A DNA stretch of 64,000 bases from an uncultured Anaerolineales bacterium (GTDB lineage: Bacteria > Chloroflexota > Anaerolineae > CG2-30-64-16): the NCBI GenBank assembly GCA_964614645.1, contig CAZTMA010000004.1, positions 13,555-77,554 on the forward strand, written 5' to 3'. Below the pieces are notes generated by a model. That model made no database searches, was not told where the DNA came from, and saw only the letters and a list, made by a program, of their open reading frames with translations. Of the stretch, positions 4,399 to 54,113 are shown one piece after another (the first letter of the stretch is position 1; every line of letters begins with the position of its first letter). The translations under genes were made by a program, and so were the position numbers.

Positions 4399-5343
4399 AT
4401 GGCAAAGAAGAAGAGCAAGGCATCCTCCGGCGCATCCAGCACCCAGACGGCCCGACCAGCACAACCGAGCTGGCGGAAGCCGCCTGCGCGCTCGCGTCGC
4501 CAGATGCACAGCCAGAAGGCCAATAGCCGCCGGCTCTCCGCCCAAGTAACGCCGCCTGAGGAGGCGCGACGGACCGTGCGCTCCGGCATTCGCATGGCCG
4601 CCCGGCTGCACGACGGCAGCGAGGCAGCGGCCCCGCGGGACTGGCGCACGCCTTTGCGCACTATCCTGCGCCAGGGCTTCGTGCTCGTCCTGCTCGGGGC
4701 GGTGATATACGGCCTGGTTGAGTTTTTCCAACTGCCGGCGCTGGCTGTGACGTCAGGCGCCGCACAGATCGGCGGTGCACACCGCCTGACCCCGCGGGCC
4801 ATTTACGATGCCAGCGGCGTCGAAGGACGCAATATCTTCCTGGTGCGGCAGGCCGAAGTTGAAGCGAATCTCCGGGAGATGCCCGGCATCGCCAGCGCGG
4901 ACGTCCATCTGCGGCTGCCCAACCAGATACTGATTGACGTGAAGGAGCTGCGGCCGCTCGTGGCCTGGCAGGCCGGCGAGGAAACGGTCTGGCTCGCTGC
5001 AGACGGAGGCGTTGTGCCCCAGGCCGGCGCCGCGCCGCCGCTGACTCTCGTGGATACGACCAACACCGCGCTCGCGGGGAGCGACGGATGGCGGCAGAAG
5101 GTGCTGGCGCACCTGGCCGAGCTGCAGGCCGGCCACCCCGAGTTGATGACGTTCGGCTATGGCGATCCGCAGGGGCTCTACTACCAGTCTGCGGAAGGGT
5201 GGGAGGTCTGGCTGGGCGACACCGGGCCGATGAGCCACAAGGTAAAGGTGGCCGCAGGAGCCAGCGCGCAAGTCAGCCAGTCCGGCACCCAAGCCAAGGT
5301 GATAGACCTGCGCTTCAGCGACGAACGCGCCTTGTGGTGGTGA
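4399..5343 (+). CDS. ftsQ: cell division protein FtsQ/DivIB (POTRA domain), basic cytoplasmic N-terminus + single TM
   Basis: Position between ddl and ftsA; TM helix ILRQGFVLVLLGAVIYGLV; POTRA-like NIFLVRQAEVEANLREMPGIASADVHLRLPNQILIDVKE; start chosen at MAKKKSK (alternatives 4309/4387). Confidence 0.65.
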   Translation: MAKKKSKASSGASSTQTARPAQPSWRKPPARSRRQMHSQKANSRRLSAQVTPPEEARRTVRSGIRMAARLHDGSEAAAPRDWRTPLRTILRQGFVLVLLGAVIYGLVEFFQLPALAVTSGAAQIGGAHRLTPRAIYDASGVEGRNIFLVRQAEVEANLREMPGIASADVHLRLPNQILIDVKELRPLVAWQAGEETVWLAADGGVVPQAGAAPPLTLVDTTNTALAGSDGWRQKVLAHLAELQAGHPELMTFGYGDPQGLYYQSAEGWEVWLGDTGPMSHKVKVAAGASAQVSQSGTQAKVIDLRFSDERALWW

Positions 5344-5362: not shown

Positions 5363-6591
5363 GTGAGTGAGTTGATTTGCGCCCTCGACGTGGGGACGAC
5401 GAAAGTGTGTGCCCTCATCGGCAAGCTCGATGACAACAATGCGTTGCGGGTCATCGGTGTGGGCCGGGTGCCGGCGCGCGGCCTGCGCCGGGGGGTCGTC
5501 GTCAACACCGTCGAGGCAACCGCCTGCATCGGCCAGGCGATTGACGCAGCCGAAGCCGCAGCCGGCGTGCCGCTCGAAGCGGCCTATGTCGGCATTTCCG
5601 GCGCACATATCGGCGCAATTGGCAGCAAGGGGGTCACAATCCTGGGCCGCAACGGGCGCAAGATTACGCCGGAGGATTGCCAGCGTGCACTGGACCAGGC
5701 CCGCGATATTGCGCTGCCGCACAATCGCGATATCATCAACGCAGTTGCGCGAAGCTACACAGTCGATGATAATCAGGATGTACAAAATCCGATCGGCATG
5801 TTCGCCTACCGGCTGGAAGTGGATGCCAGCCTCATCACTGGCGCGACATCCGCCATCACGAACCTGACGAATTGCGTTACCGAGAACGGCGTCGAGATCG
5901 AGGACCTCGTGCTGCAGCCGCTGGCGTCTGCAGAGGCCGTACTGACTAACGATGAACGCCAGGCCGGCGTGGCCGTGGTGGACATCGGTGGCGGCACCAC
6001 CGACATGGCAATCTTCCTCGAATCGGCAGCCTGGCACACACACGTGCTGGACGTGGGCGGCGACCACTTTGTGCGCGACGTGGCAGCCGGCCTGCGAATG
6101 CCTTATGACAAAGCGGAATCGCTCATCCGGCAGTTCGGTCACGCACTGCCCCACCTCGTTCCACCTGATGCTGAGGGCCCGCCTTCGGTGAAGGCGGTTC
6201 TCAGGTCATCCAGCGGCGTGCGCTGGCTGACATCATCTACTTCCGGGCGGAAGAAGTTCTGGACCTCATCGTAGATGAGATCAAACGCAGCGGCTATGAC
6301 GGGCTATTGCCCGCCGGCGTGGTCCTGACAGGCGGGGTGGCCCAGCTCGACGGCATCGGCGAGATGGCCCACGACCGGCTGACCTGGCCCGTGCGCATCG
6401 GCCGGCCCAACGGAATTGGTGGGGCCGTCGTTGACTTGAGCAGCCCGGAATATGCTACGGCAGTCGGACTGCTCCTCTGGGGGTTGCGCCGCGACAGCCA
6501 GCCGCGCGTGGCAACTCCGCCGGGCGGCGCGCCGCCCTGGCAACGCATTCTCGATTACTTGAAGCGCATTTTGCCGATTCCGACATCTTAA
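5363..6591 (+). CDS. ftsA: cell division protein FtsA, reading frame broken by single-nt frameshift in G3C3 run at ~6175-6181 (ORFs 5363-6274 and 6307-6591 are one gene)
   Basis: Actin-like ATPase motifs (DVGTTKV, VVDIGGGTTD); C-terminal half (LADIIYFRAEEVLDLIVDEIKRSGYDGLLPAGVVLTGG...) continues in +1 frame from 6181 while frame of 5363 hits a stop at 6272; frame 1 has TGA at 6172. Confidence 0.85.
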
Positions 6592-6646
6592 CTATGTACA
6601 GAAGGTTTCCGACAGGAACCACCCTATAGCGTAAAAGGAGCGTCAG

Positions 6647-7738
6647 ATGAACCCGAAAGGACAACAACCGGCCTTTGTTGAGAATCCGGCCCAAATCAAG
6701 GTGCTTGGCGTGGGCGGCGGTGGTTCCAACGCGGTTAACCGCATGATCGAACAGGGGATCCGTGGCGTGGAGTTCATCGCAATCAACACGGATGCCCAGG
6801 CCCTGATGCTGGCGAATGCGCCGCAGCGTCTCCGCATCGGCGACAAGCTCACCAAGGGGTTGGGCGCGGGCGGCAATCCCGAGATCGGGGACAAGGCCGC
6901 GCAAGAGTCCGCCGAGGAGATCAAGGCCCTGATGAAGGGCACCGACATGGTGTTCGTGACGTGCGGCATGGGCGGCGGCACAGGCACAGGCGCCGCGCCG
7001 GTCATCGCCAAACTCGCAAAGGATTCGGGCGCGCTGACGATCGGGGTTGTCACGAAGCCGTTCACCTTCGAAGGCGCACGCCGCCGCCGGCTGGCAGATG
7101 ATGGCATCAAGCGGCTCAAGGACAGCGTGGATACGCTCATCGTGATCCCGAATGACCGGCTGCTGCAGGTGGTGGACAAGAAGGCCAGCATCCAGCAGGC
7201 GTTCCTGGTGGCCGACGATGTGCTGCGCCAAGGCATCCAGGGCATCTCGGAACTCATCACGATCCCCGGCCTCATCAACCTGGACTTCGCGGACGTGCGG
7301 ACGGTGATGAACGAAGGCGGCTCCGCCCTGATGGCCATCGGCCAATCCAGCGGCGACAACCGCGCCCAGCAGGCCGCGGAACAGGCCATCCACAGCGCGC
7401 TGCTGGACGTGAGCATCGAGGGCGCCGGCGGCATCCTGTTCAATGTCACGGGTGGACCGGACTTGAGCCTGTACGAGGTCAACGAGGCTGCGGAGATCAT
7501 CCGCCGCACAGCCGATCCGGATGCGAACATCATCTTCGGTGCCGTCATCGACCCGAACGTCAAGGACAGCATCCGCATCACCGTCATCGCGACCGGTTTC
7601 GACATGGCTCACGAGCAGCAAGCGCCCGTGGTTGATGAGAGCCACGGCGCGACGACGACGCTGCCGTTCCCGAAGCGGGAATACCAGCGCGACGACCTGG
7701 ATATCCCGGCCTTCCTGCGGCGGTCGCGCCAAAGTTAA
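6647..7738 (+). CDS. ftsZ: cell division GTPase FtsZ
   Basis: [11 protein letters not shown], tubulin signature [16 protein letters not shown]7 loop [11 protein letters not shown]; AAAGGAG SD. Confidence 0.95.
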
Positions 7739-7763
7739 AACCGCACTATAGGGTGACCCTTAC

Positions 7764-7797
7764 CCCCTCTCCCGGCCTGCGGGAGAGGGGCTTTTTT
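7764..7797 (+). terminator. rho-independent terminator after ftsZ
   Basis: cccctctcccg-gcctg-cgggagagggg followed by CTTTTTTC. Confidence 0.7.
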
Positions 7798-7923
7798 CAA
7801 CCTCGCGCCCATAGCCACTTTCACCTCCCAAACCTTGGCCCGATAACTCAACCTTAAAATTATGCCGAAAAGGGCCAATCCCCTTATACTCCCGGTCTCA
7901 TGTGTGTTATACTCTGCTGGTCA

Positions 7924-7939
7924 ATACAATATCTTGTAT
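7924..7939. promoter_or_regulatory. candidate NrdR box (ATACAATATCTTGTAT) upstream of nrdR-nrdJ
   Basis: 16-bp palindrome matching NrdR-box consensus acaCwAtATaTwGtgt at ~13/16 positions, in AT-rich spacer 200 bp upstream of nrdR. Confidence 0.35.
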
Positions 7940-8145
7940 TAAACTGAACTTGACATACTACTGGTTGTGGCGCGGCTCACGAGCTTCATTTACAGATCAG
8001 GCAATGACTGGATCAGGGCCGCTGACTGCTCTAGCCCACTGGGTGTGCAGGAGAGGCATCTGATCGACCCCGGATCGTCCTCTACCCTCCCCGTCTGTGG
8101 CTGCGCGCGCCAGTGCAACTCGATGCACAGTGGAAAGGTGATACG

Positions 8146-8595
8146 ATGCAGTGCCCATACTGTGGTCAGGCGGACTCGCGCGTGGTCGATACCCGCGCGA
8201 CCGGTGAAAGTATTCGGCGCCGGCGTGAATGCCAGACCTGCCGCAAACGCTTCACCACCTACGAGCAAATCTCGGAGGCGCTACTGATCGTGAAGCGTGA
8301 TGGCCGGCGCGAGCCTTTCGACCGGCACAAGCTGCTCCAGGGGGTGCGCATCGCCTGCGCCAAACGCCCCATCGCTATGACCGAGATTGAGCGCATCGTT
8401 AGCCAGATCGAGGAGCACCTGTTCAGTCTGGGCCGGGCCGAAGTGAGCAGTGATGCGATCGGACAACTGGTGCTGGAGAAGCTGAAGGAACTGGATTCAC
8501 TGGCCTACATCCGCTTTGCCATCGTCTACATGGCGATGGAAGACGTGGAAACCCTGCAGCGTGAAATCCAGCGGCTGCTGACCGAGCCCAAGTAG
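8146..8595 (+). CDS. nrdR: transcriptional repressor NrdR (Zn-ribbon + ATP-cone)
   Basis: MQCPYCGQADSRVVDTRATGESIRRRRECQTCRKRFTTYE; start at internal ATG 8146. Confidence 0.9.
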   Translation: MQCPYCGQADSRVVDTRATGESIRRRRECQTCRKRFTTYEQISEALLIVKRDGRREPFDRHKLLQGVRIACAKRPIAMTEIERIVSQIEEHLFSLGRAEVSSDAIGQLVLEKLKELDSLAYIRFAIVYMAMEDVETLQREIQRLLTEPK

Positions 8596-8773
8596 AGATC
8601 GCGCCGACGACAATTCTGGCCCAGTCGACCGGGACAAGCTATCCGTCAGAGCCGAAGCAAGCCCTTCCAGACCACAGGTGATTCGCCGCCGTCTGTACCG
8701 GTGACCTTATTGAGTGTTAGCTTTACGCCGCTTTTTGTGGCGTTGACGATAGAATGGATGAGAGGAGTCAGGG

Positions 8774-11700
8774 ATGAAGCCCCAGGACAAAGCACGGCCT
8801 TTTGCGCCCGCATTGACACCGCCCGCCGAGTTGGAGCTTTCAGAGAATAGCCAGCAGGTACTGCGCAAACGCTATCTGCGGCGTGGGCTGGACGGTCAAC
8901 CCACCGAAACTATCGAGGGAATGTTCCGGCGGGTAGCCCGGGCCGTTGCGGAACCGGACGCCGCCCAAGGGTATGACATTCACAGCACGGAAGACAGCTT
9001 TTATGCGCTGTTGACCGATTTACGTTTCTTCCCAAATTCTCCTACTTTTACCGGGGCGGGCACGCCCCTGGGCCAGCTTGCTGCTTGCTTCGTCCTGCCT
9101 ATATCCGACGACATGGGCCGCGACTCCGCCGGTATCTTCCAAACACTGCGCGATGCTGCGCTCATCCAGCAGACCGGCGGCGGCAACGGCTTCTCCTTTT
9201 CGAACCTGCGTCCCAAGGGTGACTCCGTAGCCTCCAGCGCGGGCGTTGCCACCGGGCCGGTCGGCTTCCTGCGTGTGTACGACACGGCCTTCGGTGAGGT
9301 GGCACAGGGGGGAACCCGGCGCGGGGCCAATATGGCCGTGCTGCGCGTGGACCACCCCGACATCGAAGAATTCATCACCTGCAAGGCGCAGGAAGGTCAG
9401 ATCACCAACTTCAACATCTCTGTCGGCATTACCGATGCGTTCATGCAGGCGGTCGAAGCGGATACCGATTTCGCGCTGGTCAATCCACGCGACGGCAAGA
9501 CCTGGCGCACCGTGCGGGCGCGTGACCTGTTCGACAAGGTCGTCACCTACGCGCACCACAACGGTGAGCCGGGCGCGCTGTTCCTCGATGCAGCCAACCG
9601 CACGAACCCGGTGCCGCATCTCTACGAGCTGGCAGCCACCAACCCCTGCTTCACCGGCGACGCGCGTGTCGCGACGGATCAGGGTTTCCTGTCGCTGGCC
9701 GAACTGCACGCCCTCAACAAGCCGCTCGCTGTGGCAACCGACGAGCGCGCCCGACCGGAGTGGGTGCGTCAGGCTGGGTTCGGCACTGCCAGCCCGGTGA
9801 TGCTGACGCGCCGGAACACTCCCGTCCTGGCCCTGCGCACGACCCATGGCTACCGCGTGACCGCCACGCCTGACCACCGTTTCCTGACTGCCGACCGCGG
9901 CTACGTGCCACTGCAGGAGCTAAAACCCGGCGAGCGTTTGCTCATCCAGTCGGAAGAGGGACCCTGGTCGCAGCAGTTCGAGCTCCCCAATGTCCGCTAT
10001 ATACAGGAGAAGATGGCCGTCATGGGCCGCGGCGGCGATCACGCCAGCGGACGCACGGTTACGCGCCATGATTTCAGCGAGCTCTATGCCGCGGTGCCCA
10101 CACTGTGGAGTTATGAACTAGGTGTGGCGCTCGGCTGGCTCGTCGGCGACGGTTGGCTGAGCCCCACGAGCGGTTCGCCTGTCGGGCTGGCCTTCGGAGT
10201 CGAAGAAGGTGGTTATTGCGGGCTTGAGACCCTCCAACCCAACCTTCAGCAGTGGTTCGGCCCAGGCCATGTTCACGAGCGCGGCAGCGTCCGACAGTTG
10301 ACCTATGGCCGGCTGCCGTACGAGTTCTTCGCCTCCCTGGGGGTCTCGACCGCCTCAGCCACGGAGAAGCGGGTTCCCACCAGCCTCTGGCAGGCGCCCC
10401 GTGACGCGGTGCGCGGCTTCCTTGCCGGCCTGTTCAGCGCGGATGGCTCCGTCCAGGTCAATGAAGCGAAGCAGGACTGCACTGTGCGGCTGGCCAGCTC
10501 ATCGCGCGGGCTGATCGAGGATGTGCAGCTGCTCCTCGCCAACTTCGGTATTGCCTCCCGCATCTACCGGCGCCGTGACCAGATGACCCGCCCGATGCCC
10601 GATGGCAAGGGTGGGAGCAGGAACTACACGAGCGCACCGCAGTTCGAGCTGGTGATCGGCAAGTCGAACCGCGTCCGCTTTGCCCAGGTGATCGGCTTCG
10701 CACATCCGCGCAAGCAGACCCGTCTGCTGGAACACGCCGCAGGGGCCGTCCGCGGCGCGTACCGGGAGCGTTTCGAAGATCGCGTCGCCAGCATCGAAGA
10801 CGCCGGGACAGCGGATGTCTATGATCTCACCGAACCGTTGACCAGCAGCTTCATCGCCAACGGGTTCGTCGTGCACAACTGCGGCGAGCAGTGGCTCGGC
10901 CCGTACGAAAACTGCTGCCTGGGCTCCATCAACCTCGCTCAACATGTCACGCCAGACGGCCAGGTCGATTGGGAGAAGCTGCGCGAGAGCACGGTGGTCT
11001 CCACCCGCTTCCTGGACAACGTGGTCGACGCGAACAAGTACGTGCCGGCCGTGCCTGCGCTGCGTGAAGCCGCGCTGCGCGCCCGGCGCATCGGCCTCGG
11101 CATCATGGGGCTGGGCGACCTGATGTACCAGTTGGGCGTGCGCTACGGCTCGGAAGAGGGCCAGGAGTTCGCCGCGCAGGTCATGGAGTTCGTGCGCTAC
11201 CACTGCATGTTGACGAGCGTCGAGCTGGCCCAGGAGCGCGGACCGTTCCTCGCCATCACGGGCAGCATCTACGACCCGGCGAACCTGCGCTGGCAGCCGC
11301 CTCAGCCCATCACATCTTACCGGCACGACTGGGGCCGCCCGGTCGTGGACTGGCACCGCGTGGTGGATGGCATCAAGCAGCACGGCATCCGCAACGCCGC
11401 GCAGACCACCGTCGCACCCACCGGCACCATCGGGACGGTCGCGGGCTGCGAAGGCTACGGCTGCGAGCCGGTCTTCGCGCTGGCCTACACGCGGACGGTC
11501 AAGGACGGTACGCGCGACCTCAAGCTGACTTACACCAGCCCGTTGTTCGAGGCTGCGCTGGAGCGTGCGGGCCTGGACAAGGCCACGCGCGAACGCATCA
11601 GCGAACAGGTCAGCGCGGTCGGCAGTTGCCAGGGCCTGGAGGAAGTGCCGGAAGCCCTGCGCCACGTCTTCGTCGTATCCCAGGACATCACTGCGGAAGA

Positions 11701-12499
11701 GCACGTCCGCATGCAGGCGGCCATCCAGGCTTTCGTCGACAATTCGATCAGCAAGACGATTAACTTTCCGCCCGCAGCCACGGTGGATGATGTGGCGGAG
11801 GCCTACCTGCTCGGCTGGCATCTCGGCTGCAAGGGGCTGACGGTCTACGTCACGGGCAGCCGGCAGGAGGTCGTGCTGGAGACGAAGGCCACAGCCGAGT
11901 CGAAGGCGGCAGGTGAGGCCGCGTCCGCGGTCCCTTCCTCACCGGTTGAGACCGCGACCAAGTACCCGATGATGAAGCGTCGCCCGCGGCCCACCACCCT
12001 GCACGGTATGACCTACCGCAAGGAGACACCGCTGGGGACAGCCTTCGTCACTGTGAATATCAACGGCGGCAACCGGCCGTTCGAGGTCTTCATGAACGTG
12101 GGAAAGGCCGGCAGCGATGTCGCGGCGGTCTCCGAGGCGTTGGGGCGCCTCATCTCGCTCATCCTGCGCCTGCCCTCACCGCTTGACGAGAACGAGCGCC
12201 TGCAGGAGGTCATCGACCAGCTTGCCGGCATCGGCGGCGGCCGGTCGCTCGGCTTCGGCGCCAACCGGGTTCGGTCGCTGCCCGACGCCGTGGCCCAGGT
12301 CCTGCGCGAACATCTCAACAGCCACTTCCCGTCGGACAGCGGCGCGGTGGGAGAAAACGCCGAGCCTTATGTCGAACAGCTCCCGCTGCCCATCGCTGAC
12401 CGCGTGATCGGGGACCTGTGTCCGGACTGCGGCCAGGCGACGTTTATCCCGACGGAGGGCTGCCGCAAATGCTACGCCTGCGGCTACAGCGAATGCTGA
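8774..12499 (+). CDS. nrdJ: class II (adenosylcobalamin-dependent) ribonucleotide reductase NrdJ, intein-containing, Cys-rich C-terminal tail
   Basis: RNR barrel motifs; active-site NPC|GEQ split by intein; C-terminal CPDCGQ...[12 protein letters not shown]; GAGAGGAG SD. Confidence 0.9.
9647..10879 (+). mobile_element. intein (411 aa) with LAGLIDADG homing endonuclease domain inserted in NPC|GEQ motif of nrdJ
   Basis: Begins CFTGDARV (Cys1), ends FVVHN followed by +1 Cys of CGEQ; internal LAGLIDADG blocks GWLVGDGWL and [11 protein letters not shown]. Confidence 0.85.
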
Positions 12500-12691: not shown

Positions 12692-13789
12692 ATGAACCGT
12701 TTGAGTGTCCGATTGCTGTTCGTCGTCGTACTGTGCATGTCCCTTGTCGGGGCTGCACCCCACCCCGCTGCCGCGCAGGCATCCGAGGGCTGGCATGCAG
12801 AATACTACGCCAATCCTCACCTGATCGGCGCTCCCGCCCTTACCCGGATCGACGGCCTGATCGAATTCCAGTGGGGCACCGGCACGCCTGACCCCAGCAT
12901 GACCGGCGACAGCTTTTCGGCTCGCTGGACCCGCTACCTGGACCTGACCGCCGGCGCGTACACCTTCTATGCGGCCACGGATGACGGCGTGCGCGTCTTC
13001 GTGGACGACCGGCTGCTCATCGACGCGTGGCAGCCGCGCTCCGTCACCACCGACCAGGCCACCATCGACCTGGCCGGCGGCCAGCATGCTTTGCGCGTCG
13101 AATACTTCGATGCCGGCGGTGCAGCCAGCGCCAACATCTGGTGGGAGCAGGCAGCCAGTCCCACACCGACGCCGACCGCCCAGCCTACGGTAACACCGCC
13201 GGCCCAGAAGACGCCCACCGGCGGCCAGACGACCTACGTCGTCCGCTCCGGCGACACCCTGGCCCGGATTGCCGCGCGCTTCGGTGTGACCGTCGCGGCG
13301 ATCATGGCCGCGAACCCGATCATCACGAATCCGGATCGCATCCGCGTGGGCCAGCGGCTCATCATTCCGGCCCGCGGCACGCAACCGCCCACGACCACCT
13401 TCAGCCAGGTCCGCGTCTATCTCATCAGCGAGGGCACGGGCAGCGTCGGCTGTGGCGATGAAGTCGTCGGGGTGCGGCGCAACATCACGCCCACCACCGC
13501 GCCGCTGACCGCCGCGCTGAACCAGTTATTCTCTATCAAGACGCGCGACTACGGCCAGTCCGGCCTGTATAACCCGCTGTATCAGTCGAACCTGGCAATC
13601 CAGGAAATCACCCGCACCGGCACAAGCTGGACCGTCAAGCTGACGGGCACGCTGGTGCTCGGTGGCGTGTGCGACAACCCGCGCGTCGAAGCGCAGTTGC
13701 GCCAGACCGCGCTGCAGTTCGACACAGTCAAGCAAGTGAAGTTCCTCATCAACGGCGTGCCGCTCGAGCAACTGCTGTCCGGCCGTTGA
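12692..13789 (+). CDS. secreted protein with PA14 domain, LysM domain and C-terminal GerMN/Gmad2-like domain
   Basis: Signal peptide MNRLSVRLLFVVVLCMSLVGAAPHPAAAQA; PA14-like WHAEYYANP...DDGVRVFVDDRLLIDAW; LysM YVVRSGDTLARIAARFGVTVAAIMAANP; GGAGGTGAA SD. Confidence 0.65.
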   Translation: MNRLSVRLLFVVVLCMSLVGAAPHPAAAQASEGWHAEYYANPHLIGAPALTRIDGLIEFQWGTGTPDPSMTGDSFSARWTRYLDLTAGAYTFYAATDDGVRVFVDDRLLIDAWQPRSVTTDQATIDLAGGQHALRVEYFDAGGAASANIWWEQAASPTPTPTAQPTVTPPAQKTPTGGQTTYVVRSGDTLARIAARFGVTVAAIMAANPIITNPDRIRVGQRLIIPARGTQPPTTTFSQVRVYLISEGTGSVGCGDEVVGVRRNITPTTAPLTAALNQLFSIKTRDYGQSGLYNPLYQSNLAIQEITRTGTSWTVKLTGTLVLGGVCDNPRVEAQLRQTALQFDTVKQVKFLINGVPLEQLLSGR

Positions 13790-13796
13790 CGAGGTT

Positions 13797-13895
13797 TTGC
13801 CACCGAAAACACTGAGCACACGGAGAGCCGTTACAGGTTGCAGGTTACAGGTTGGACGACGTCGGGTCAACAACCTGCAACCTGCAACCTATAAC
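13797..13895. repeat. palindromic element with mirrored tandem CAGGTTG/CAACCTG heptads; left end (TTTGCCACCGAAAACAC) shared with GCCACAGAGG-TIR family
   Basis: gttacaggttgcaggttacaggttg ... caacaacctgcaacctgcaacctataac form ~25-bp stem; loop contains gacgacgtc palindrome. Confidence 0.5.
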
Positions 13896-13937
13896 CCATC
13901 CCCCACCCTTCTTTCGTGTCCAGCAAAGGAGTCCGCC

Positions 13938-14984
13938 ATGGTCACCGCCGACGCCCGCGCCTACCCGCTCATCATCCCAGGCTACACCGGCTCCCGCTCC
14001 GGCATCCAGATTGGCACCCAACTGCCTGCCGACGCTTCCACCGAAGACATGCAATTCGCCCGCCAGTTGGGCATCGAATGGGTCATGACAACCGTCCCGG
14101 CCGCCGATGCCTCGGTCGAGACCTACCGCGCCGTCGTGCGCCACTTTGCCGAGGGCGGGCTGAAGGTCTACCGGCTTGCCAACCACGCAGTGCACAACAT
14201 GGAAGCCGTCACGCTCAACCTGCCGGAGCGTGACGGCAAAATCGCCGAGTACCTGGCCTACATCCGCATGTTGGCCGCCGCAGGCATCTACTACGCCACC
14301 TATGCGCACATGGCGAACGGCATCTGGAGCACCGAGCCGGAGCCAGTGCGCGGGGGCGCGAATGGCCGTGCCTTCCGGCTGGATCAGGCCCGCACCGGCC
14401 GGTGGATTGATGAGTCCTGGGACCTCCCCTTGACACACGGCCGCGAGTACACCGAAGACGAGCTGTGGGAGAACTACGCGTACTTCATCCGTCAGGTCGT
14501 CCCGGTCGCAGAGGAAGCGGGGGTCTACATCGGCATCCATCCGGACGATCCGCCGGTTTACCCGCTCGGCGGCATCCCCCGCTGCATCTTCGGCAACTTC
14601 GAGGGCTACAGCCGCGCGCTGGAGATTGCAGACAGCCCGAACGTCGGCGTCTGCCTCTGCTTGGGCTGCTGGCTGGAGGGCGGTCCGGCGATGGGCAAGA
14701 GCGCAGTCGAGGCCATCCGCTACTTCGGCAGCCAGCGCAAGCTGTTTAAGGTGCACTTCCGCAACGTGACTGCGCCCATGCCCGAGGGCTTCGTAGAGAC
14801 TTTCCTGGATGATGGTTACGCGGATATGCTCGAAATCATGGCCGCGCTGCAGGAAGTGGGGTTCAATGGAGCCATCATCTCCGACCACCTCCAGCAGGTT
14901 GTCGGCGGGCGTTACGCTGCCGAGGCGTATGCCGTGGGCTACATGCGCGGGCTGGTTCAGGCGGTGGCCGCGCGAAACCGGTAA
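13938..14984 (+). CDS. uxuA: mannonate dehydratase-like (UxuA family, xylose-isomerase-like TIM barrel)
   Basis: VVPVAEEAGVYIGIHPDDPPVYPLGGIPR matches UxuA [35 protein letters not shown] SD before ATG 13938. Confidence 0.7.
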   Translation: MVTADARAYPLIIPGYTGSRSGIQIGTQLPADASTEDMQFARQLGIEWVMTTVPAADASVETYRAVVRHFAEGGLKVYRLANHAVHNMEAVTLNLPERDGKIAEYLAYIRMLAAAGIYYATYAHMANGIWSTEPEPVRGGANGRAFRLDQARTGRWIDESWDLPLTHGREYTEDELWENYAYFIRQVVPVAEEAGVYIGIHPDDPPVYPLGGIPRCIFGNFEGYSRALEIADSPNVGVCLCLGCWLEGGPAMGKSAVEAIRYFGSQRKLFKVHFRNVTAPMPEGFVETFLDDGYADMLEIMAALQEVGFNGAIISDHLQQVVGGRYAAEAYAVGYMRGLVQAVAARNR

Positions 14985-14987
14985 CCG

Positions 14988-15048
14988 CGAAGACGCGAAG
15001 AACGTCAAAGTTCTCTGATTGGAATGTCTTTGCGTCTTCGCGGTTCAA
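14988..15048 (+). terminator. stem-loop after uxuA (ccgcgaagacgc...gcgtcttcgcgg)
   Basis: 12-bp perfect inverted repeat flanking 37-nt loop between uxuA and next gene. Confidence 0.4.
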
Positions 15049-15063
15049 ACACAGGAGGTTGAC

Positions 15064-15822
<759 letters not shown>

Positions 15823-15840
15823 GAAGCTGTATGAGGAAGC

Positions 15841-16434
15841 ATGGAGAGGATTCGCTGGGCACCCAAAATCGTGCGAGCCAGAATCTGGCAGCTTTATCAA
15901 AACGACGCCCGAGGCATTGTAGACGAAGTGTTGCTCGAGGATGTCGGCTTCTCCCTGTGGTTACGCTGCCAGGCCATCCTCATGGTCAGTCATCACGAAG
16001 TCGAATGCCCACGTTGCCGACAGGTGTTTAGCCTGGGCGACTGGTCGGCCACCGAGCCGGATCCGGTTACTTGTCCTGCGCCCAACTGCGACTGGCAGAC
16101 ATCGCGCCAGGATTACCATCTATCGTGGCGTCATCGGGACCTTATTGGGAGCAACGCCTTACCAGCGTTCCAGGCTTACGTGGACGACTACCCGCGCGCA
16201 CGTTCACCGCAAGCGCGGATGGTTTGCATAGACCAACTGATACATGCCTTCCACTGGGACTTGAAGCAGAATCTGCCGAACCGCTCAGTCGGCAACAACC
16301 TCATTGAGGGCAGCCACGAGAGCGTGCTTGGGTTACTGGACAAACTGCATGACGGCGAGCCGACTGAGGATAAACGGCGCTGGCGTGAGACGGTGCAGAT
16401 GATGATGCAGCGACGACGTGGGGTCAAACCGTAG
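15841..16434 (+). CDS. hypothetical protein with CxxC...CxxxC zinc-ribbon-like motif
   Basis: 197-aa ORF, GAGGAAG SD; ECPRCRQ...CPAPNCDW; no recognisable family. Confidence 0.45.
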   Translation: MERIRWAPKIVRARIWQLYQNDARGIVDEVLLEDVGFSLWLRCQAILMVSHHEVECPRCRQVFSLGDWSATEPDPVTCPAPNCDWQTSRQDYHLSWRHRDLIGSNALPAFQAYVDDYPRARSPQARMVCIDQLIHAFHWDLKQNLPNRSVGNNLIEGSHESVLGLLDKLHDGEPTEDKRRWRETVQMMMQRRRGVKP

Positions 16435-18051: not shown

Positions 18052-18287
18052 AAGGCTCCCAGAGGGGCTATCGACCCGGGGTCACGGAAGTTATCATAGC
18101 AGACTCTAAATGCAGGGGCAAACCACTTGACTTTTTCTCAAGTTCGGTTAAGCTTGTCCTTATCTTGGATTAAGCTTGTTCGTTCTCATAAATGTGTTGT
18201 TTGATTGTCAACCGCTGTCCTGACGGGGCGCAGCGACCCTCCGCCATCTGACAGGGCAAATCCAATCGCGCGTGCTGAATCGGAAGA

Positions 18288-18944
18288 GTGCCAATGCGAC
18301 AAATCTTCGGTCCCAGCGCAAACGTCATTGCTCGGGCTTCGATTATAGGTGGGTTGCTGACGCTGGTCGTCCTCGTGGCAACCGGGTTCGCCTATATCCG
18401 TTCTCCCTATAACACCGAGCAGCGCGTCCACGTGGAGCAGCCGGTGCAGTTCGCGCACCGCACCCACGTCGGCAACGTCGGCCTCGATTGCCGCTACTGC
18501 CACACCACAGTCGAGGACTCCCGCTTTGCAGGCATCCCCCCTATCGCGACCTGCATGAACTGCCATTCGCAGCTGCACGTCAATGCACCCATCCTGGAGC
18601 CGATCCGTGAAGCCTACCGGACGGGCCAGTCGGTGCAGTGGGTACGCGTCCACAACCTGGCCGACTTCGCGTACTTCGACCACAGCGCCCATCTCGCGAA
18701 GGGCGTCGGCTGCACGACCTGTCATGGGCCGGTCGGCGATATGCCCCTCACGTGGCAGGAAAGCACCCTCCTGATGAACTGGTGCCTCGACTGCCACCGC
18801 GCGCCGGAGAAATACCTCCGCCCGCGCGAAGAGGTCTTCAATGCCAACTGGGTGCCGCCGGCCAACCAGCTTGAGGTCGGGCGACAACTCGTCGCCGAAT
18901 ATCAGGTGAACGCCAGGGTCGACTGCTCGACCTGCCATCGGTAG
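18288..18944 (+). CDS. actA: Alternative Complex III pentaheme cytochrome c subunit ActA
   Basis: N-terminal TM then five CxxCH (CRYCH, CMNCH, CTTCH, CLDCH, CSTCH); first gene of act operon. Confidence 0.85.
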   Translation: MPMRQIFGPSANVIARASIIGGLLTLVVLVATGFAYIRSPYNTEQRVHVEQPVQFAHRTHVGNVGLDCRYCHTTVEDSRFAGIPPIATCMNCHSQLHVNAPILEPIREAYRTGQSVQWVRVHNLADFAYFDHSAHLAKGVGCTTCHGPVGDMPLTWQESTLLMNWCLDCHRAPEKYLRPREEVFNANWVPPANQLEVGRQLVAEYQVNARVDCSTCHR

Positions 18945-18967
18945 AACCATCCGAGGGGAAGATATAT

Positions 18968-21951
<2,984 letters not shown>

Positions 21952-21955
<4 letters not shown>

Positions 21956-23352
21956 TACATGAGCAGCCTATCCGCAAGGAACTGATCGGGCCGCCGCTGG
22001 ATCGGGCGGACCTCGTGCCGGTCATCGAGCCCGGCCAAACCTTCGAGTCGGTCAACGAGCAGATCGGCTCCGTCGTCCTGCGCCGCGGCTTCCAGCGTGG
22101 CTGGCTGCTGGGGTTAGCCATCGCGTTCCTGCTGCTGATGGTGTTCCTCGGCGCAGTCACCTGGTTGTTCATCCGGGGCGTCGGAATCTGGGGCATCAAC
22201 ATTCCGGTGGGCTGGGGGTTCGCGATCATCAACCTGGTGTGGTGGATCGGCATCGGCCACGCGGGCACGCTCATCTCGGCCATCCTCCTCCTGCTGCGCC
22301 AGCAGTGGCGCACGTCCATCAACCGGTTTGCCGAGGCCATGACGCTGTTTGCGGTCGCGTGCGCGGCGCTGTTCCCGATCCTGCACCTGGGCCGGCCCCA
22401 ATACTTCTACTGGCTGGTGCCCTACCCGAACACGCTGGACTACTGGCCGCAGTTCCGCAGCCCGCTGATGTGGGACTTCTTCGCCATCGCCACTTACGGC
22501 CTGGTCTCGCTGCTGTTCTGGTTCGTCGGCCTCATCCCCGACATGGCGACGCTGCGAGACCGCGCCAAGAGCACCTTTGCCCGCGTGACCTTCGGCATCC
22601 TGTCGATGGGCTGGCGCGGCTCTGCGGTGCATTGGAAGCGCTATCAGGACCTGTACTATCTCCTGGCAGCGCTGGCGACACCGCTGGTCGTGTCCGTCCA
22701 CAGCATCGTGAGCTACGACTTTGCCGTGAGCGTGATTCCCGGCTGGCACTCGACCATCTTCCCGCCGTACTTCGTGGCCGGCGCGATTTACGCCGGGTTT
22801 GCAATGGTGCTGCTCATCTCCATCCCGCTGCGCAAGTACTACCACATGGAGAACTTCATCACCGACCGTCACCTGCGCAACATGGCGATCGTGATGTTAA
22901 CGTCCGGGCTGGTCGTGGCCTACGGTTACGCCATGGAAATCTTCACCGCCTGGTATAGCGGCAACGAGTACGAAGGCTTCATGATGCTCAATCGGGTGAC
23001 GGGCCCCTACGGCTGGGTGTTTGGCCTGATGATGCTGTGCAATGTCGTCATTCCGCAGCTCCTGTGGATCAAACGCATCCGCACAAACTCACTCTGGCTC
23101 TGGGGCATTTCGCTCGTCATCAGCTTTGGCATGTGGTTCGAGCGCTTCGTCATCGTCGTCACCAGCCTGCACCGGGACTTTCTGCCGTCCTCCTGGGCGA
23201 TGTACACGCCGACGGTCTGGGACTACGCCACGTTCATCGGCACGTTGGGGCTGTTTGGCACGCTGATATTCCTGTTCATCCGCTTCCTGCCGTTCATCTC
23301 GATGGCTGAGACGCGCGAGCTGGTGCACCAGACAGGAGGGAAGGTCGAATGA
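21952..23352 (+). CDS. actC: ACIII membrane subunit ActC (NrfD/PsrC-like, ~10 TM)
   Basis: Polytopic NrfD-like protein, 4-nt overlap with actB. Confidence 0.8.
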
Positions 23353-23927
23353 CCGAGCATGTGGCCCACGACATGACGCATGAGGCTGAAGAGGCCGCGG
23401 TCCGGCCCTACGGTCTCGTGGCCGAGTTCGTGGACGAGCACACTATTCTGGATGCCGCACGCCGCGCATATGCCGAGGGTTACCGCCGGCTGGACGCCTA
23501 CACGCCGATACCGGTGGAAGGTCTGTCGGAGGTGGTCGGCTTCCGCAAGAGCCGCATCCCGCTGCTGATGCTGCTGGGCGGCATCGCCGGGCTGGTGGGC
23601 GGGTTCGCGCTGCAGTATTGGGTACACGTCATCAACTATCCGATTAACATCGGCGGTAAGCCGCTGAACAGCGTGCCCATGTGGGTGCCCATCACGTTCG
23701 AGACGACCGTCTTGCTGGCGGCGTTGACGGGTGTGCTGGCGATGATTCTGCTCAACGGCCTGCCCGCGCCCTACCATCCGCTGTTCAACGTGGCCGAGTT
23801 CGCCCGCGCCAGCCAGGATCGCTTCTTCCTGGCGATTGAGGCGACCGACCCGCGCTTCGATATGACCCAGACCCGCCGGTTCCTGGAGAGCCTGGGCCCG
23901 GCCAGCGTGCACGAGGTGTTGCCGTGA
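23349..23927 (+). CDS. actD: ACIII subunit ActD
   Basis: 192-aa protein with two TM helices (IPLLMLLGGIAGLVGGFALQYW; TTVLLAALTGVLAMILL), 4-nt overlap with actC. Confidence 0.7.
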   Translation: MTEHVAHDMTHEAEEAAVRPYGLVAEFVDEHTILDAARRAYAEGYRRLDAYTPIPVEGLSEVVGFRKSRIPLLMLLGGIAGLVGGFALQYWVHVINYPINIGGKPLNSVPMWVPITFETTVLLAALTGVLAMILLNGLPAPYHPLFNVAEFARASQDRFFLAIEATDPRFDMTQTRRFLESLGPASVHEVLP

Positions 23928-23941
23928 AGGTGAAACGCTTT

Positions 23942-24012
23942 GCCACCGAGAACACAGAGAGCGTAGAGTCTTTCTCTCTCAATAACTCAGTGTCCTCTGT
24001 GACCTCTGTGGC
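23942..24012. repeat. MITE-like element with GCCAC(C/A)GAG...CTCTGTGGC terminal inverted repeats, inserted between actD and actE
   Basis: gccaccgagaacacagagagcgtagagtctttctctctcaataactcagtgtcctctgtgacctctgtggc; 25-nt 3' block shared with copy at 47521-47601. Confidence 0.55.
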
Positions 24013-24589
24013 TAGAAAGCTAAGCTTCCTGCTCCTGGGACTCTTCGCGCTGGTGGCGCTGACGGGCTGCCAGGCGATGGCCGACCAGCCGCGCTATGAT
24101 CCGCTGGAGCCGAGCGCGTTCTTCGCGGACGGGCAGTCAGCGCGGCCGCAGGTCGAGGGGTCTGTAGCGCAGGGCCAGTTGCGCACCAGCGACGTGCGCT
24201 ATACCGGCCAGTTCAACGGTGCGCCGGCGACCGAGTTTCCCTTCGAACTGACCGCCGACCTGCTCGAGCGCGGCCGGCAGGAGTATGACATTTACTGCAC
24301 GCCCTGTCACGGCTTCACCGGCGCGGGCGACGGCATGGTCATCCAGCGCGGATTCCCTGCGCCGCAGACCTTCCACCAGGACCGCCTGCGCACGGCGGCG
24401 CCCGGCTACTTCTTCCAGGTCATCACCAACGGGTTTGGCCGGATGCAACCGTACGCCAGCCAGATCCCCGATGTGGATGACCGCTGGGCCATCGCCGCTT
24501 ACGTGCGGGCCCTGCAACTCAGCCAGGCGGCGCCCGCCGAGGCCCTGCCGGCGGAAGACATGCAGCAACTCGGAGGGGCAACCCAATGA
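24008..24589 (+). CDS. actE: ACIII monoheme cytochrome c lipoprotein ActE (alternative GTG start 23924 overlapping actD stop)
   Basis: Signal peptide + lipobox LFALVALTGC; single CTPCHG heme motif; 4-nt overlap with actF. Confidence 0.75.
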   Translation: MARKLSFLLLGLFALVALTGCQAMADQPRYDPLEPSAFFADGQSARPQVEGSVAQGQLRTSDVRYTGQFNGAPATEFPFELTADLLERGRQEYDIYCTPCHGFTGAGDGMVIQRGFPAPQTFHQDRLRTAAPGYFFQVITNGFGRMQPYASQIPDVDDRWAIAAYVRALQLSQAAPAEALPAEDMQQLGGATQ

Positions 24590-25788
24590 TGACACCACAA
24601 GGCATTCTCCGCCGCATGATGCCCGGCGCACTCGTGGTCGGCGCAGTCGGGCTGATCGCGACGCTGGCGGGCATATTCCTGGGCGTCCCCGGCGCATACC
24701 CCGCCTACCTGTTCGCTTTTGTCTTCTGGACCGGCATGGGCATCGGCAGCCTGCTGCTGGCGCTGCTGCAGCATTTGACCCGCACAGGTTGGGGCGCACC
24801 GATCCAGCGGTTCGTGGAGGCGGGCGCGCGCACCCTGCCGCTGATGCTCGTGCTCTTCATCCCCATCATCTTCGGGATGAAGGCGCTGTACTCGTGGGCG
24901 GACCCGGCGCACGTCATTGGTGACCCGGTCCTGGAGCACAAGCAGCCGTATCTCAACGTGCCTTTCTTCATCATCCGTACGGTCATCTACTTCGCGGTGT
25001 GGACGTTCTTCGCCTACCGGACGGGCGCACTCTCGCTCAAACTCGACGAGACGGGCGACGTGAACATCGCGGGCACGCTGCGGGGCATGGGCGCGGGCGG
25101 GCTGCTCGCCGTCACACTGACCGCTTCGTTCGCCGCCTTCGACTGGGTGATGTCGCTGGATCCGCACTGGCTGTCCAGCATCTTTGGCCTGATGGTCACG
25201 ATGGGCATGATGCTGGGCGCGTTTGCGCTGGCCATAGCCCTGGCAACCTGGGCGTCGGACTGGCCGCCGCTCGATGCGGCTGTCTCTCCCCGGCGCTTCA
25301 ATGACCTGGGCAGCCTGATGCTTGCCTTTGTCATGATCTGGGCCTATCTGTCGTTCTCCCAGTACTTGCTCATCTGGGCCGCAAACATCACCGAAGAAGT
25401 GCCGTGGTACCTGGCACGCATGGCGGGCGGCTGGAAATACATCGCCATCGCCATCATCGCGCTGCACTTCGCACTGCCCTTCATCATGTTGATGTTCCGC
25501 GATGTGAAGCGCAACCGGAGGCTGCTGACGGCCATCGGACTCTTCCTGGTGCTCATGCGTGCGGTCGACACCTTCTGGCTGGTCGTCCCGTCGCTGGGCG
25601 CCGCCGGTGTGGGCGCCATCTGGCCCCACCTGACCGCGCTGGTCGGGGTTGGAGGCCTGTGGGCCGCCTTCTTCGCCTGGAACCTGGCGCGGGCGCCGCT
25701 GCTGCCCGTCGGCCTGCCGGCGCCCATGCAGGACCATGCGGCGGTTTCTGAACCTCATAACAACAGGATCGTGCGGCATGAGCGATAA
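24586..25788 (+). CDS. actF: ACIII membrane subunit ActF (NrfD-like)
   Basis: Polytopic membrane protein paralogous to ActC. Confidence 0.8.
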   Translation: MMTPQGILRRMMPGALVVGAVGLIATLAGIFLGVPGAYPAYLFAFVFWTGMGIGSLLLALLQHLTRTGWGAPIQRFVEAGARTLPLMLVLFIPIIFGMKALYSWADPAHVIGDPVLEHKQPYLNVPFFIIRTVIYFAVWTFFAYRTGALSLKLDETGDVNIAGTLRGMGAGGLLAVTLTASFAAFDWVMSLDPHWLSSIFGLMVTMGMMLGAFALAIALATWASDWPPLDAAVSPRRFNDLGSLMLAFVMIWAYLSFSQYLLIWAANITEEVPWYLARMAGGWKYIAIAIIALHFALPFIMLMFRDVKRNRRLLTAIGLFLVLMRAVDTFWLVVPSLGAAGVGAIWPHLTALVGVGGLWAAFFAWNLARAPLLPVGLPAPMQDHAAVSEPHNNRIVRHER

Positions 25789-26506
25789 GCCAAATCCGAC
25801 TGACCCGCGGGGTAAGCCGCGAGAACGCCACCAGCCGTCCGGCTATTTCCGAGGCGCCGAGCCTAAAGGGCGCAAGCTCACCGAGCAGGAGGCGCATGAC
25901 CGGGGGGTCAGCGATCCGGAGACGGCCGAGCGGCTGGGCACCGACCGGCTTGCGCAGGAACAGCCATCCCCTGCACAAGGCGCGGTCGAGGAGCGCGCCG
26001 CCAACCGGCAGGCCGCTCAAGCTGTGCCGCCTGGGGCGGCGCAGCCCCACGAGCGCCGAGAAGTGCACCAAAGCCAGCATGATGTGGATGCCGTGCGGGA
26101 TGACCCCCACGCCCCGGCCATCGCGCACGGCGCGCCATCGGGCACGACCGAGGCGCAGCACGAGACGTCCGATGTGGGGCTGAACATCCTGGTCGTGGCC
26201 GGGGCCATTGTCGGCGGGTTAATCATCATCGCACTGATCGTGGTCGGCCTGCTCACGAATGTGTTCTACAGCTCGCCGGACACGCAGCCGCAGGGCGGCT
26301 CGCCCATCGAAACTGCTGCGCCGCCCGCTGCGGTCGAAATGCGCGTCAACCCCGTGAGTGCGCTCGACCGCTACCAGGCGGCTGCACAGGAGACACTCAA
26401 CAGCTATGGCTGGGTGGATGAGGCGACGGGTGTCGCCCGTATCCCGATCACGCGTGCCATGACGCTGATTACCGAGGGCCTGACGCCGGCGGTGGGCCAG
26501 GAATGA
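25778..26506 (+). CDS. ActG-like single-pass membrane protein with low-complexity Pro/Ala/Gln-rich N-terminus
   Basis: Last ORF of act cluster; TM VGLNILVVAGAIVGGLIIIALIVVGLL; periplasmic C-terminal tail; assignment to ActG by position only. Confidence 0.4.
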   Translation: MSDKPNPTDPRGKPRERHQPSGYFRGAEPKGRKLTEQEAHDRGVSDPETAERLGTDRLAQEQPSPAQGAVEERAANRQAAQAVPPGAAQPHERREVHQSQHDVDAVRDDPHAPAIAHGAPSGTTEAQHETSDVGLNILVVAGAIVGGLIIIALIVVGLLTNVFYSSPDTQPQGGSPIETAAPPAAVEMRVNPVSALDRYQAAAQETLNSYGWVDEATGVARIPITRAMTLITEGLTPAVGQE

Positions 26507-26602
26507 AACGTAAGCCCGGCGCGTGATGGCAGTTAAACCAACATACAAGGGGACAGCAGGGGCATATATTAGGGGCCATTATCACAGAAGGGTTAAGGGT
26601 TA

Positions 26603-27544
26603 ATGGTTATGTTCGACACAAAACGACAGGCATCCCACCAGGGCCGATCGACGGGCGAGAACCGGGTCGGCTTTGTTATGCTGCTGGCCCTGCTGATGAC
26701 GCTGCTGACATTACCGGCCGGCGCGGTCTACGCGCAGGATGATTCAGATATGAATCACACTGCTGAGGAAGCCATACTCAACCAGGTGTCATTCGATCAG
26801 AATCTCGACAGCCAGATGCCCCTGGAAGTGCCCATGATCGACGAGCAGGGGCGCCGCGTGACGCTCGGCCAGTACCTGGGCGCAAAGCCGGCCATCCTGG
26901 TGTTCACCTACTACGACTGCCCCAACCTGTGCCCCATCATCTTGCACGGGTTGAGCGAATCGTTGCGCACCATGCAGGTCGAGGTGGGCAAGGAATTCGA
27001 CGTCGTGGTCGCCAGCATCGACCCGCGCGAGACGCCGGAGCAGTCCACCGCGGCCAAAGCCGCCATCATCGCCAGCTATGGTCGTTGGGGCTCCCAGGAC
27101 GGCTGGCACTTCCTGACTGCGCCGGAAGATTCGATCGTGCGGCTGGCGGATACCGCGGGTTTCCATTATGTCTACGACCCTAAGTCCGACCAGTACGCGC
27201 ACCCCGCTGGCATTCTGGTGATGACGCCGGGCGGCCGGATTTCGAAGTATCTCTACGGGCTGGAGTTTTCGCCGCGTGACCTGAAGCTGGCGCTGGTGGA
27301 TGCCTCCGCGGGCAAGATTGGCAGCGCGGTGGACCAGCTCCTCCTGCGCTGCTTCCACTATGACCCGACGCGGGGCAAGTATACCGTCGCCATCCGGGAG
27401 ATTCTCAAGTATGCTGCCCTGCTCACGATGTTCGGGCTCGGTGCCATGGTGCTGGTGCTGGCACGTTCAAAGCCCCGCCAGTCGGAGCCACCGATTTTGT
27501 CGACCGAGGAGCAGGTTGATGACCAGAAGGAGAGCCAGTCGTGA
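26603..27544 (+). CDS. SCO1/SenC copper chaperone (thioredoxin-like)
   Basis: N-terminal TM/signal; CPNLCP CxxxC copper-binding motif; located before cox genes. Confidence 0.8.
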   Translation: MVMFDTKRQASHQGRSTGENRVGFVMLLALLMTLLTLPAGAVYAQDDSDMNHTAEEAILNQVSFDQNLDSQMPLEVPMIDEQGRRVTLGQYLGAKPAILVFTYYDCPNLCPIILHGLSESLRTMQVEVGKEFDVVVASIDPRETPEQSTAAKAAIIASYGRWGSQDGWHFLTAPEDSIVRLADTAGFHYVYDPKSDQYAHPAGILVMTPGGRISKYLYGLEFSPRDLKLALVDASAGKIGSAVDQLLLRCFHYDPTRGKYTVAIREILKYAALLTMFGLGAMVLVLARSKPRQSEPPILSTEEQVDDQKESQS

Positions 27545-28496
27545 ATACCCAGTGGACGCTTGACCAGGCAACCGCCCATGCAGGCCGGGTGGACACGCTC
27601 TTCCTGGTCCTGGTGGCCGCCAGTGCGATCGTCATTATTGGCATAACAAGCGCACTGACCTACTTCATCCTGAAGTACCGCCGCGGCAAGGATGCTGACC
27701 GCACCAACCCGGTGGAGACGCATCACAAGCTGGAATTGACGTGGACGATTGTCCCGCTGGTGCTTTCCCTGGGCGTGTTCCTCTGGGCCGGCCGCCTCTA
27801 TTTTCAGATGTACGATGTGCCATCCGACGCCATGGAAGTATATGTCATCGGCAAGCAGTGGATGTGGAAGTTCCAGCATCCGGACACGGGCCAGATCGAG
27901 GTTAACGACCTGCACGTACCCGTCAACCGGCCTATTAAACTCACAATGACATCTGAGGACGTGATCCACAGCCTGTACGTCCCCGCGTTCCGCATCAAGA
28001 CCGATGTACTGCCGGGGCGCTACACGACCGTCTGGTTTGAGGCCACTGAGACGGGCAATTATCACCTGTTCTGCGCCGAATACTGCGGCACGGACCACTC
28101 GGGCATGACCGGCCAGGTGATCGTGATGCCGGAAGAAGAGTACCTCGCCTGGGCCAGCGGAGGAGGCGCGGCGGGCGGCCAGCCGGTCTCTGCGGCGCAG
28201 GCCGGTGAGCAGCTGTTCACCCGGACGGGCTGCGTAGCGTGCCACAAGCTCGACGGCACTGCGGCAGTCGGCCCGGCACTTGCTGGCATCTTCGGGCAGG
28301 AAGTCAGGTTGGCGAGCGGAGAAACCGTCACGCGTGACGAGGCGTACCTGCGGAAATCCATCCTCGAACCGGCCACTCAGGTGGTCGAGGGTTACCAGCC
28401 GGTGATGCCGCCATACCAGGGGCAGTTGACCGAGGATCAGGTGTTACAGATCATCGCCTATATCAAGGAGTTAGGCGCCGAACAAGGGGGTGCGCA

Positions 28497-28500
<4 letters not shown>
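27541..28500 (+). CDS. coxB: cytochrome c oxidase subunit II, caa3-type (C-terminal cytochrome c domain)
   Basis: CuA site HSLYVP...[15 protein letters not shown]; C-terminal CVACH heme-c motif. Confidence 0.9.
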
Positions 28501-30162
<1,662 letters not shown>

Positions 30163-30170
<8 letters not shown>

Positions 30171-30831
30171 CATATCGCAAATCGCAATCGAAGCACGGCC
30201 GGGCGTAGCGCACCATTTCGATGACGTTGAACAGCAGCACGAGGCCAACACCCTCGGCATGTGGGTGTTCCTCACAACTGAGGTACTGTTCTTCGGCGGC
30301 GTGTTCCTCGGCTACCTGGTGTTCCGTTCGCTGTACCCGCAGGCGTTCGCGCAGGCGAGCCACCACTTGAACGTTCCGTTGGGCACGGCCAACACGGCGC
30401 TCCTGCTGTGCAGCAGCTTGGCGATGGTTCTCGCGGTCTACTTCGTACGTCGAGACCAGAAGCGCACCGCGGTCATGCTGTTGCTGCTCACCGCAGCGCT
30501 CGGCACGGCCTTCCTGGGCATCAAGGCGGTCGAGTGGATCGTGGACTGGAACGAGGGGCTGGTGCCGGGCCTGAACTGGCTCGTCACGGGGCCCAATGCA
30601 GACCAGGAAGAGTTGTTCTTCGTCCTGTACTTCACCATGACAGGCCTGCACGCCATCCACATGATCATCGGCATTGCCGTCGTGGGCCTTGCGGCGCTGT
30701 GGCTTCTGCGCAAGCGGCACGTCGCGCAGATGTATACCAACATCGAGATGATCGGACTCTACTGGCACTTCGTGGACATCGTGTGGGTCTTCCTGTTCCC
30801 ACTGCTCTACCTGATTAACCTGCACGGCTGA
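30163..30831 (+). CDS. coxC: cytochrome c oxidase subunit III
   Basis: 222-aa 5-TM protein following coxA with overlap. Confidence 0.85.
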
Positions 30832-30838
30832 GGGTGAC

Positions 30839-33944: not shown

Positions 33945-34027
33945 CCCCGGCTCTCGATTTGACACATCGACGAGGGGAGCCTACACTTGCAACGCAGTAG
34001 CATTTGCAACAAGTGGAGGTTCCCCTC

Positions 34028-40233: not shown

Positions 40234-40349
40234 AGGAGCCTCCAAATGGCTATCTTGATAGCCATCTTACACCTTCTGCGTTTCGGTGTCAACTGCGCTC
40301 GTCTCACCAATCCCCGGTTTTGACACGCCAACAACCGTACGTGAGCGCC

Positions 40350-54078: not shown

Positions 54079-54113
54079 AGTGACTCCTTCACCGGTTGTG
54101 AACCGGCGGCCCT

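Follow-up and report, generated by a model that had tools for sequence, protein, structure and literature searches.

An apparent 7-bp, frame-breaking loss in the ftsA gene of one assembled Anaerolineae contig

The cell-division gene ftsA in the stretch of DNA analysed here (64 kb from an uncultured member of the Anaerolineae, hereafter the window) is a standard FtsA gene whose frame is broken by one isolated and commonplace indel. As judged from alignment with related loci, a single deletion of 7 bp (GGTGCGG, a Val-Arg pair plus one base) is the parsimonious event, and we lean towards regarding the break as a local assembly or consensus error, or as a variant that does not represent the population.

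The gene belongs to a dcw cluster ordered murC, murB, ddl, ftsQ, ftsA and ftsZ, followed by nrdR and nrdJ, in a window with a GC content of 62–68%, and its product has homologues among the FtsA proteins that uncultured Anaerolineae (Chloroflexota) encode in samples such as digesters and bioreactors. Its 5′ neighbour on the same (+) strand is ftsQ (4399–5343, start codon inferred), which encodes a POTRA domain (Pfam POTRA_1, E = 6.6e-12), and its 3′ neighbour is an intact ftsZ (6647–7738, +), the identical protein being encoded on JGI contig L016. This placement of ftsA between a POTRA-domain FtsQ and a Tubulin/FtsZ protein matches the gene order of relatives and is shared by L001 and L015. A continuous FtsA ORF of about 410 aa with a C-terminal amphipathic helix is absent from the locus, and the gene is split at 6175 into two frames, A and B; no second ftsA copy was found in the 64-kb window. 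Frame A is the ORF 5363–6274, which begins with GTG, encodes 303 aa and follows FtsA from its N-terminus to RQFGHALPHLVPPDAE (GAG at 6173–6175), so that the 5′ part of the gene comprises codons 1–271 (5363–6175, +, ending VPPDAE) and is succeeded by an out-of-frame tail of 32 nonsense codons (6176–6274, +) closed by a TAG at 6272–6274. Frame B contains a TGA (6172–6174, +) directly 5′ of the point where FtsA homology resumes, and from 6175 (GGG CCC GCC TTC...) it reads GPAFGEGGSQVIQRRALADIIYFRAEEVLDLIVDEIKRSGYDGLLPAGVVLTGG, continuing for 138 codons (GPAFGEGG...LPIPTS) to a TAA at 6589–6591 (3′ part, 6175–6591, +). Pfam assigns the 5′ part to SHS2_FTSA and finds both PF02491 (E = 1.3e-19) and PF14450 (E = 1.3e-24) on the 5′ ORF, while the PF14450 (FtsA) profile is divided over the two ORFs, with positions 1–68 in the 5′ and 74–127 in the 3′ ORF; the locus thus encodes actin-like ATPase domains bearing the SHS2 (1C) insert. 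A tblastn comparison with an intact relative places residues 1–271 in frame 2 (98.9% amino acid identity) and residues 274–411 in frame 1 (97.8%) of the window. Translation, the Pfam split and the two-frame tblastn match thus bear out three statements of a first-pass annotation of this DNA, namely that ftsA is interrupted within an otherwise intact dcw cluster, that the frame opening at 5363 runs into an unrelated tail ending at 6274, and that a TGA precedes the resumed homology in the downstream frame; that frame had been called +1, but with respect to frame A it is actually −1, or equivalently +2.

Comparison with related genomes, which the first-pass annotation had suggested, confirmed the break and found all relatives intact, but changed its size from one base to seven. 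DNA-level alignment covered seven related loci, L001–L004 (85–91% nucleotide identity), L014, L015 and L016, all intact and all 7 nt longer at the junction, where they add GGTGCGG, GGTGCGC or GGTGCGT (Val-Arg plus 1 nt) between window positions 6174 and 6175 (+), the placement of the gap being uncertain by 2 nt owing to a GG microhomology. L002, for example, reads GAT GCG GAG GTG CGG GGG CCG GCC against GAT GCT GA------- GGG CCC GCC in the window, and the deleted junction is GCTGAGGGCCCGCC, with GAGGTGCGGGG as its intact counterpart. The closest of these loci, L016, was found via an exact FtsZ look-up and shares 97.2% identity with the window across 3 kb; it carries GGTGCGG, and its FtsA equals the two pieces of the window joined, with Val-Arg and one substitution added. 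At the protein level two additional residues appear in all 12 aligned relatives (DAE-VR-GPAFG) and in 120 of 120 homologues of 60–90% identity, V at the first position in 110 and R or K at the second in 103 and 11, respectively, and none of the 120 has a gap at Val-Arg. The cluster formed at 90% identity tells the same story, its full-length members, 12 with the representative P0001 included, all being intact at 411 aa, with DAEVR read in each of the 11 non-representative sequences. The two remaining entries of this cluster of 14 are the 303-aa product itself, recorded on a single public NCBI-sourced contig of 83,182 nt, and an unrelated-looking entry of 50 aa. The nearest GTDB species representatives are about 90% nucleotide-identical to the window, and scans of a metagenome collection for the junction (0–9 nt between the flanks, exact and codon-degenerate) gave no match; these scans missed L015 and L016 too, both of which the degenerate pattern does match locally, the scanned collection being one without those samples.

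On these sequence comparisons the size of 7 bp and the privacy of the lesion to one contig may be taken as shown. The proposal of the first-pass annotation, a 1-nt deletion in a G3C3 run that could be a homopolymer error of sequencing or assembly and whose repair would restore an ORF of 409 aa, is superseded, since relatives carry seven more bases between 6174 and 6175 and their intact protein has 411 residues. A homopolymer sequencing error does not leave a 7-nt lesion as its mark; neither a change of ±1 nt in a mononucleotide run nor other errors of that type alongside it, such as further split genes in the 64 kb, were found.

The structural consequences can be read from the AlphaFold structure predicted for P0001, an intact relative (mean pLDDT 85), in which Val-Arg falls within β-strand 272–276, paired with strand 283–287, and is followed by a helix (288–313), a GG-containing strand (322–326) and a C-terminal helix (395–406), the last encoded in frame B only. 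The pair aligns to V275-E276 of solved E. coli-type FtsA (7Q6D, 7Q6G; E about 1e-65), in the region of FtsA known as subdomain 2B. The literal product, in which 271 residues of FtsA are followed by 32 nonsense residues, is short of about 140 C-terminal residues, about a third of the fold, and judging from the model should be inactive, because it would have neither the second strand of the 2B β-hairpin nor the C-terminal half of the ATPase core nor the membrane-targeting helix. A split FtsA made as two polypeptides, for which the first-pass annotation had advised a search, was considered and rejected: the first ATG, GTG or TTG of frame B occurs at 6307, so that a start there would leave out 44 conserved codons, and the analysis revealed no promoter-like site. 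The gene resembles known FtsA, the actin-like membrane anchor of FtsZ (PF14450, PF02491; 7Q6D, 7Q6F, 7Q6G, 3WQT), whose domains and ftsQ–ftsZ position it shares. Each of its halves is 98% identical in amino acid sequence to an intact Anaerolineae FtsA, and the intact relative P0133 matches PDB FtsA chains with E = 1.9e-66; the window departs from this class in its frame, broken after codon 271.

Both halves of the gene are under very strong purifying selection. In comparisons with L014, L002, L003 and L015, dN/dS is 0.010–0.016 for the upstream 271 codons and 0.026–0.086 for the downstream 138 codons read in frame B, and against L016 the downstream part differs by 17 synonymous changes and one non-synonymous change (omega 0.019). 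These low values, together with the location of the downstream differences at third positions of frame B and the finding of no stop codon among its 138 codons, indicate that frame B was still being translated during essentially the whole period in which the window and its relatives diverged. Either the break arose in an evolutionary instant, or it is not real. Of the usual marks of a pseudogene, the locus exhibits disruption relative to intact orthologues, and neither relaxed selection nor a second lesion was detected.

The reading towards which we lean holds that the organism's ftsA would be an ordinary gene of 411 aa and the 7-bp loss private to one assembled contig, the living population most likely not being represented by the deletion. 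Two routes could lead to such a contig: either assembly or consensus calling went wrong locally, in a stretch that is rich in GC, forms a hairpin and varies between strains, or a rare read variant was promoted to consensus. In its favour, every relative is intact, including the one with identical FtsZ, and the lesion is confined to one contig within the collection searched. The displaced frame, free of stops, was selected until essentially the present, and ftsA is an extremely constrained core division gene. True knock-outs of such genes are rare, whereas assembly errors, by a base-rate inference, strike independently of gene importance. Local assembly errors that corrupt gene sequences have been documented in metagenome-assembled genomes (MAGs) (PMC7111523). 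The class of frameshifted MAG genes, whether assembly errors or young pseudogenes, offers a close likeness in its single isolated indel, its occurrence in one assembly and its undecayed displaced frame, and nothing distinguishes this ftsA from it, a lesion of 7 bp rather than 1 being slightly unusual.

Two local features further favour an artefact or a minority variant. Identity to L016 is 91–93% over 5600–6420, with nearly all differences at third positions, and 99–100% over 6420–8600, a stretch spanning the ftsA 3′ end, ftsZ and nrdR; this mosaic indicates that homologous recombination took place within ftsA or that one of the two contigs is a strain-chimeric assembly, and suggests strain mixing or recombination exactly at the locus. 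In addition, a stable RNA hairpin is predicted (6166–6208, +; −25.7 kcal/mol, z = −2.9) with the junction on its 5′ arm. Its 8-bp core (6179–6197) pairs as CCGCCTTC-GGT-GAAGGCGG, and the deletion lengthens the hairpin by placing CTGAGGG beside the core; equivalent regions of relatives fold with z = −1.05 and +1.64.

Several observations pull against an error. A 7-bp deletion is atypical of sequencing chemistry, De Bruijn assemblers normally require reads with the junction k-mers, the 2-nt GG microhomology fits a real deletion by replication slippage, and the consensus is generally good, with no other split gene in the 64 kb. Indeed, when the first 18 kb of the window (1–18 kb) was compared by tblastn with the ORFs of the three closest relatives, ftsA was the sole genuine gene matched in two frames, and it is the only broken gene among roughly 55 in the window. 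Adjacent same-strand ORF pairs that could hide a frameshift proved by Pfam to be separate complete genes (among them ActD/cytochrome c, Fur-FeoA/FeoB, two aldolases, COX subunits and cupin/desaturase), and ORF-poor gaps contain small complete genes (Phd/YefM, glyoxalase and GNAT). Weighing both sides, we infer that the broken copy is more probably artefactual or non-representative than the dominant allele.

A genuine and very recent null allele is the principal rival, clearly less probable than an artefact or minority variant and still deserving of serious consideration. It supposes a 7-bp replication-slippage deletion and hence a young pseudogene in the sampled Anaerolineae population, and as part of the same tentative account the loss would be tolerated through another membrane tether of FtsZ (e.g. 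SepF) or a filamentous lifestyle. Bacillus subtilis ftsA null mutants are viable, which counts in favour of such an allele, as do the fit of lesion size and GG microhomology to a real deletion, the accuracy of the assembly elsewhere (no further frame-disrupting errors in 64 kb) and the presence of the exact 303-aa product in a public NCBI-sourced record. It has to contend with a displaced frame that displays neither relaxed selection nor a second lesion (omega 0.02–0.09), with the extreme constraint on ftsA in the clade (omega about 0.01), and with its restriction to one contig, the same-species contig L016 being intact. The literature on ftsA pseudogenes in MAGs and on SepF/FtsA in Chloroflexi yielded nothing usable.

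The original single-base model can be rescued in adjusted form by assuming a real in-frame loss of the 6 bp for Val-Arg combined with a 1-nt error or mutation, GAGGGGCCC to GAGGGCCC. Shortening of G4 to G3 is a classic homopolymer error and the net frame change of one base is accounted for, but two independent events would be needed at one spot, Val-Arg is present in 120/120 homologues and in the 97%-identical L016, and the window has no other homopolymer-type frameshift; we regard this combination as very unlikely.

Slightly less likely again is recoding, by which tRNA-Gly and tRNA-Pro would slip in tandem by −1 on G_GGC_CCG, as a ‘saviour’ of the broken gene or as a programmed event, and, as part of that same improbable account, a fraction of ribosomes would make a 409-aa FtsA without Val-Arg. 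The sequence formed at the junction (6175–6181, +) reads GA G_GGC_CCG with its two preceding bases. Its codon layout in frame A makes it a −1 slippery heptamer of the formal X_XXY_YYZ type, the one feature here that suggests design, and tandem slippage would yield DAE-G-P-A-F-G. The heptamer is in the correct frame, immediately after the frame-B TGA and where homology resumes, the downstream frame is intact and conserved, and the Pro codon at the junction is CCC in the window only, being CCG in all relatives. Moreover, the rescue of indels by translational frameshifting has been described (PMC5009743). Systematic measurements in E. coli rank G_GG.C_CC.N heptamers and the C_CCG tetramer near the bottom of the frameshift motifs; G_GG.C_CC.A failed to reach threshold even when combined with the strong IS3 pseudoknot, and C_CCG attained 1.8–3.6 times a background of about 0.06% (PMC4066793); the motif class is thus a weak one, on efficiency figures that come from E. 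coli for a host that is a member of the Chloroflexota. Stimulatory elements are likewise out of place, the hairpin core at 6179–6197 overlapping the heptamer instead of following it by 5–9 nt, the next hairpin starting 23 nt away at 6205, and the sole GAGG (6173–6176) abutting the site, with no Shine-Dalgarno-like element some 10 nt upstream. No frameshift was found in the seven DNA-aligned loci, the 11 further full-length cluster members or the 120 homologues, a conserved β-strand of five residues would be left with three in the product, and GGG-CCC at a Gly-Pro pair is no great coincidence in a GC3-rich genome of 64% GC, its chance being estimated at roughly 5–10%. Compared with bacterial programmed −1 frameshifting (dnaX and the X_XXY_YYZ sites of IS3/IS911 type), the window is alike in the formal heptamer at the frame junction and differs in its weak motif class, wrong stimulator spacing and lack of orthologue conservation, so that of four attributes of a programmed site it possesses the heptamer and is without the other three (efficiency, stimulator and conservation). 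The first-pass annotation had named the right classes of explanation (artefact, pseudogene and recoding), but the programmed frameshift among them is unsupported, no orthologue being broken and the heptamer being weak.

The least probable account we weighed is a hybrid in which a real deletion and a lineage-specific change of CCG to CCC would have created the slippery site exactly at the junction, and low-level −1 frameshifting would make enough full-length FtsA without Val-Arg for division to continue. Two further candidates were rejected. Transcriptional slippage would call for a long A or T run, and there is none, and quasi-palindrome-templated repair from the hairpin's right arm would give CTGAGAACCGCCTTC, against the observed CTGAGGGCCCGCCTTC. 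Scanning the window for Rfam families and for tRNAs gave no hits.

The window holds other features. Downstream of the dcw genes, nrdJ (8774–12499) encodes a class II ribonucleotide reductase of 1241 aa that harbours an intein of about 411 aa at about 9647–10879, in which Intein_splicing and LAGLIDADG_3 domains are recognised. L002 has the insertion; L003 and L004 lack it. In L015, nrdJ (13483–15992) is called as two abutting genes of 371 and 464 aa, and split core genes therefore occur in related metagenome assemblies too. A respiratory cluster at 18279–31114 (+), comprising a multihaem cytochrome c, a molybdopterin/Fe-S subunit, ActD (alternative complex III), SCO1/SenC, COX2, COX1 and COX3, suggests that this Anaerolineae lineage respires aerobically. 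One stop-to-stop ORF at 34001–34846 (+), directly 5′ of feoB (34698–36836), contains both FUR (aa 23–139) and FeoA (aa 202–271) and may be a Fur-FeoA fusion. On the opposite strand, a lower-GC3 stretch at 39682–40266 (−) carries a Phd/YefM-type antitoxin gene (39958–40266) and, after it, a small unannotated ORF, probably for the toxin, and a tandem pair of class II aldolase/adducin-domain paralogues occupies 53257–54908 (−).

For users of sequence data, the 303-aa FtsA in the public record should be flagged as frameshifted or corrected, and not taken as biology. Were the broken gene rescued by frameshifting, it would be a rare case of a newly born recoding site, and were the deletion both real and dominant, it would mean that a filamentous Anaerolineae lineage can do without FtsA, a modest point about cell division; each of these two outcomes has little support.
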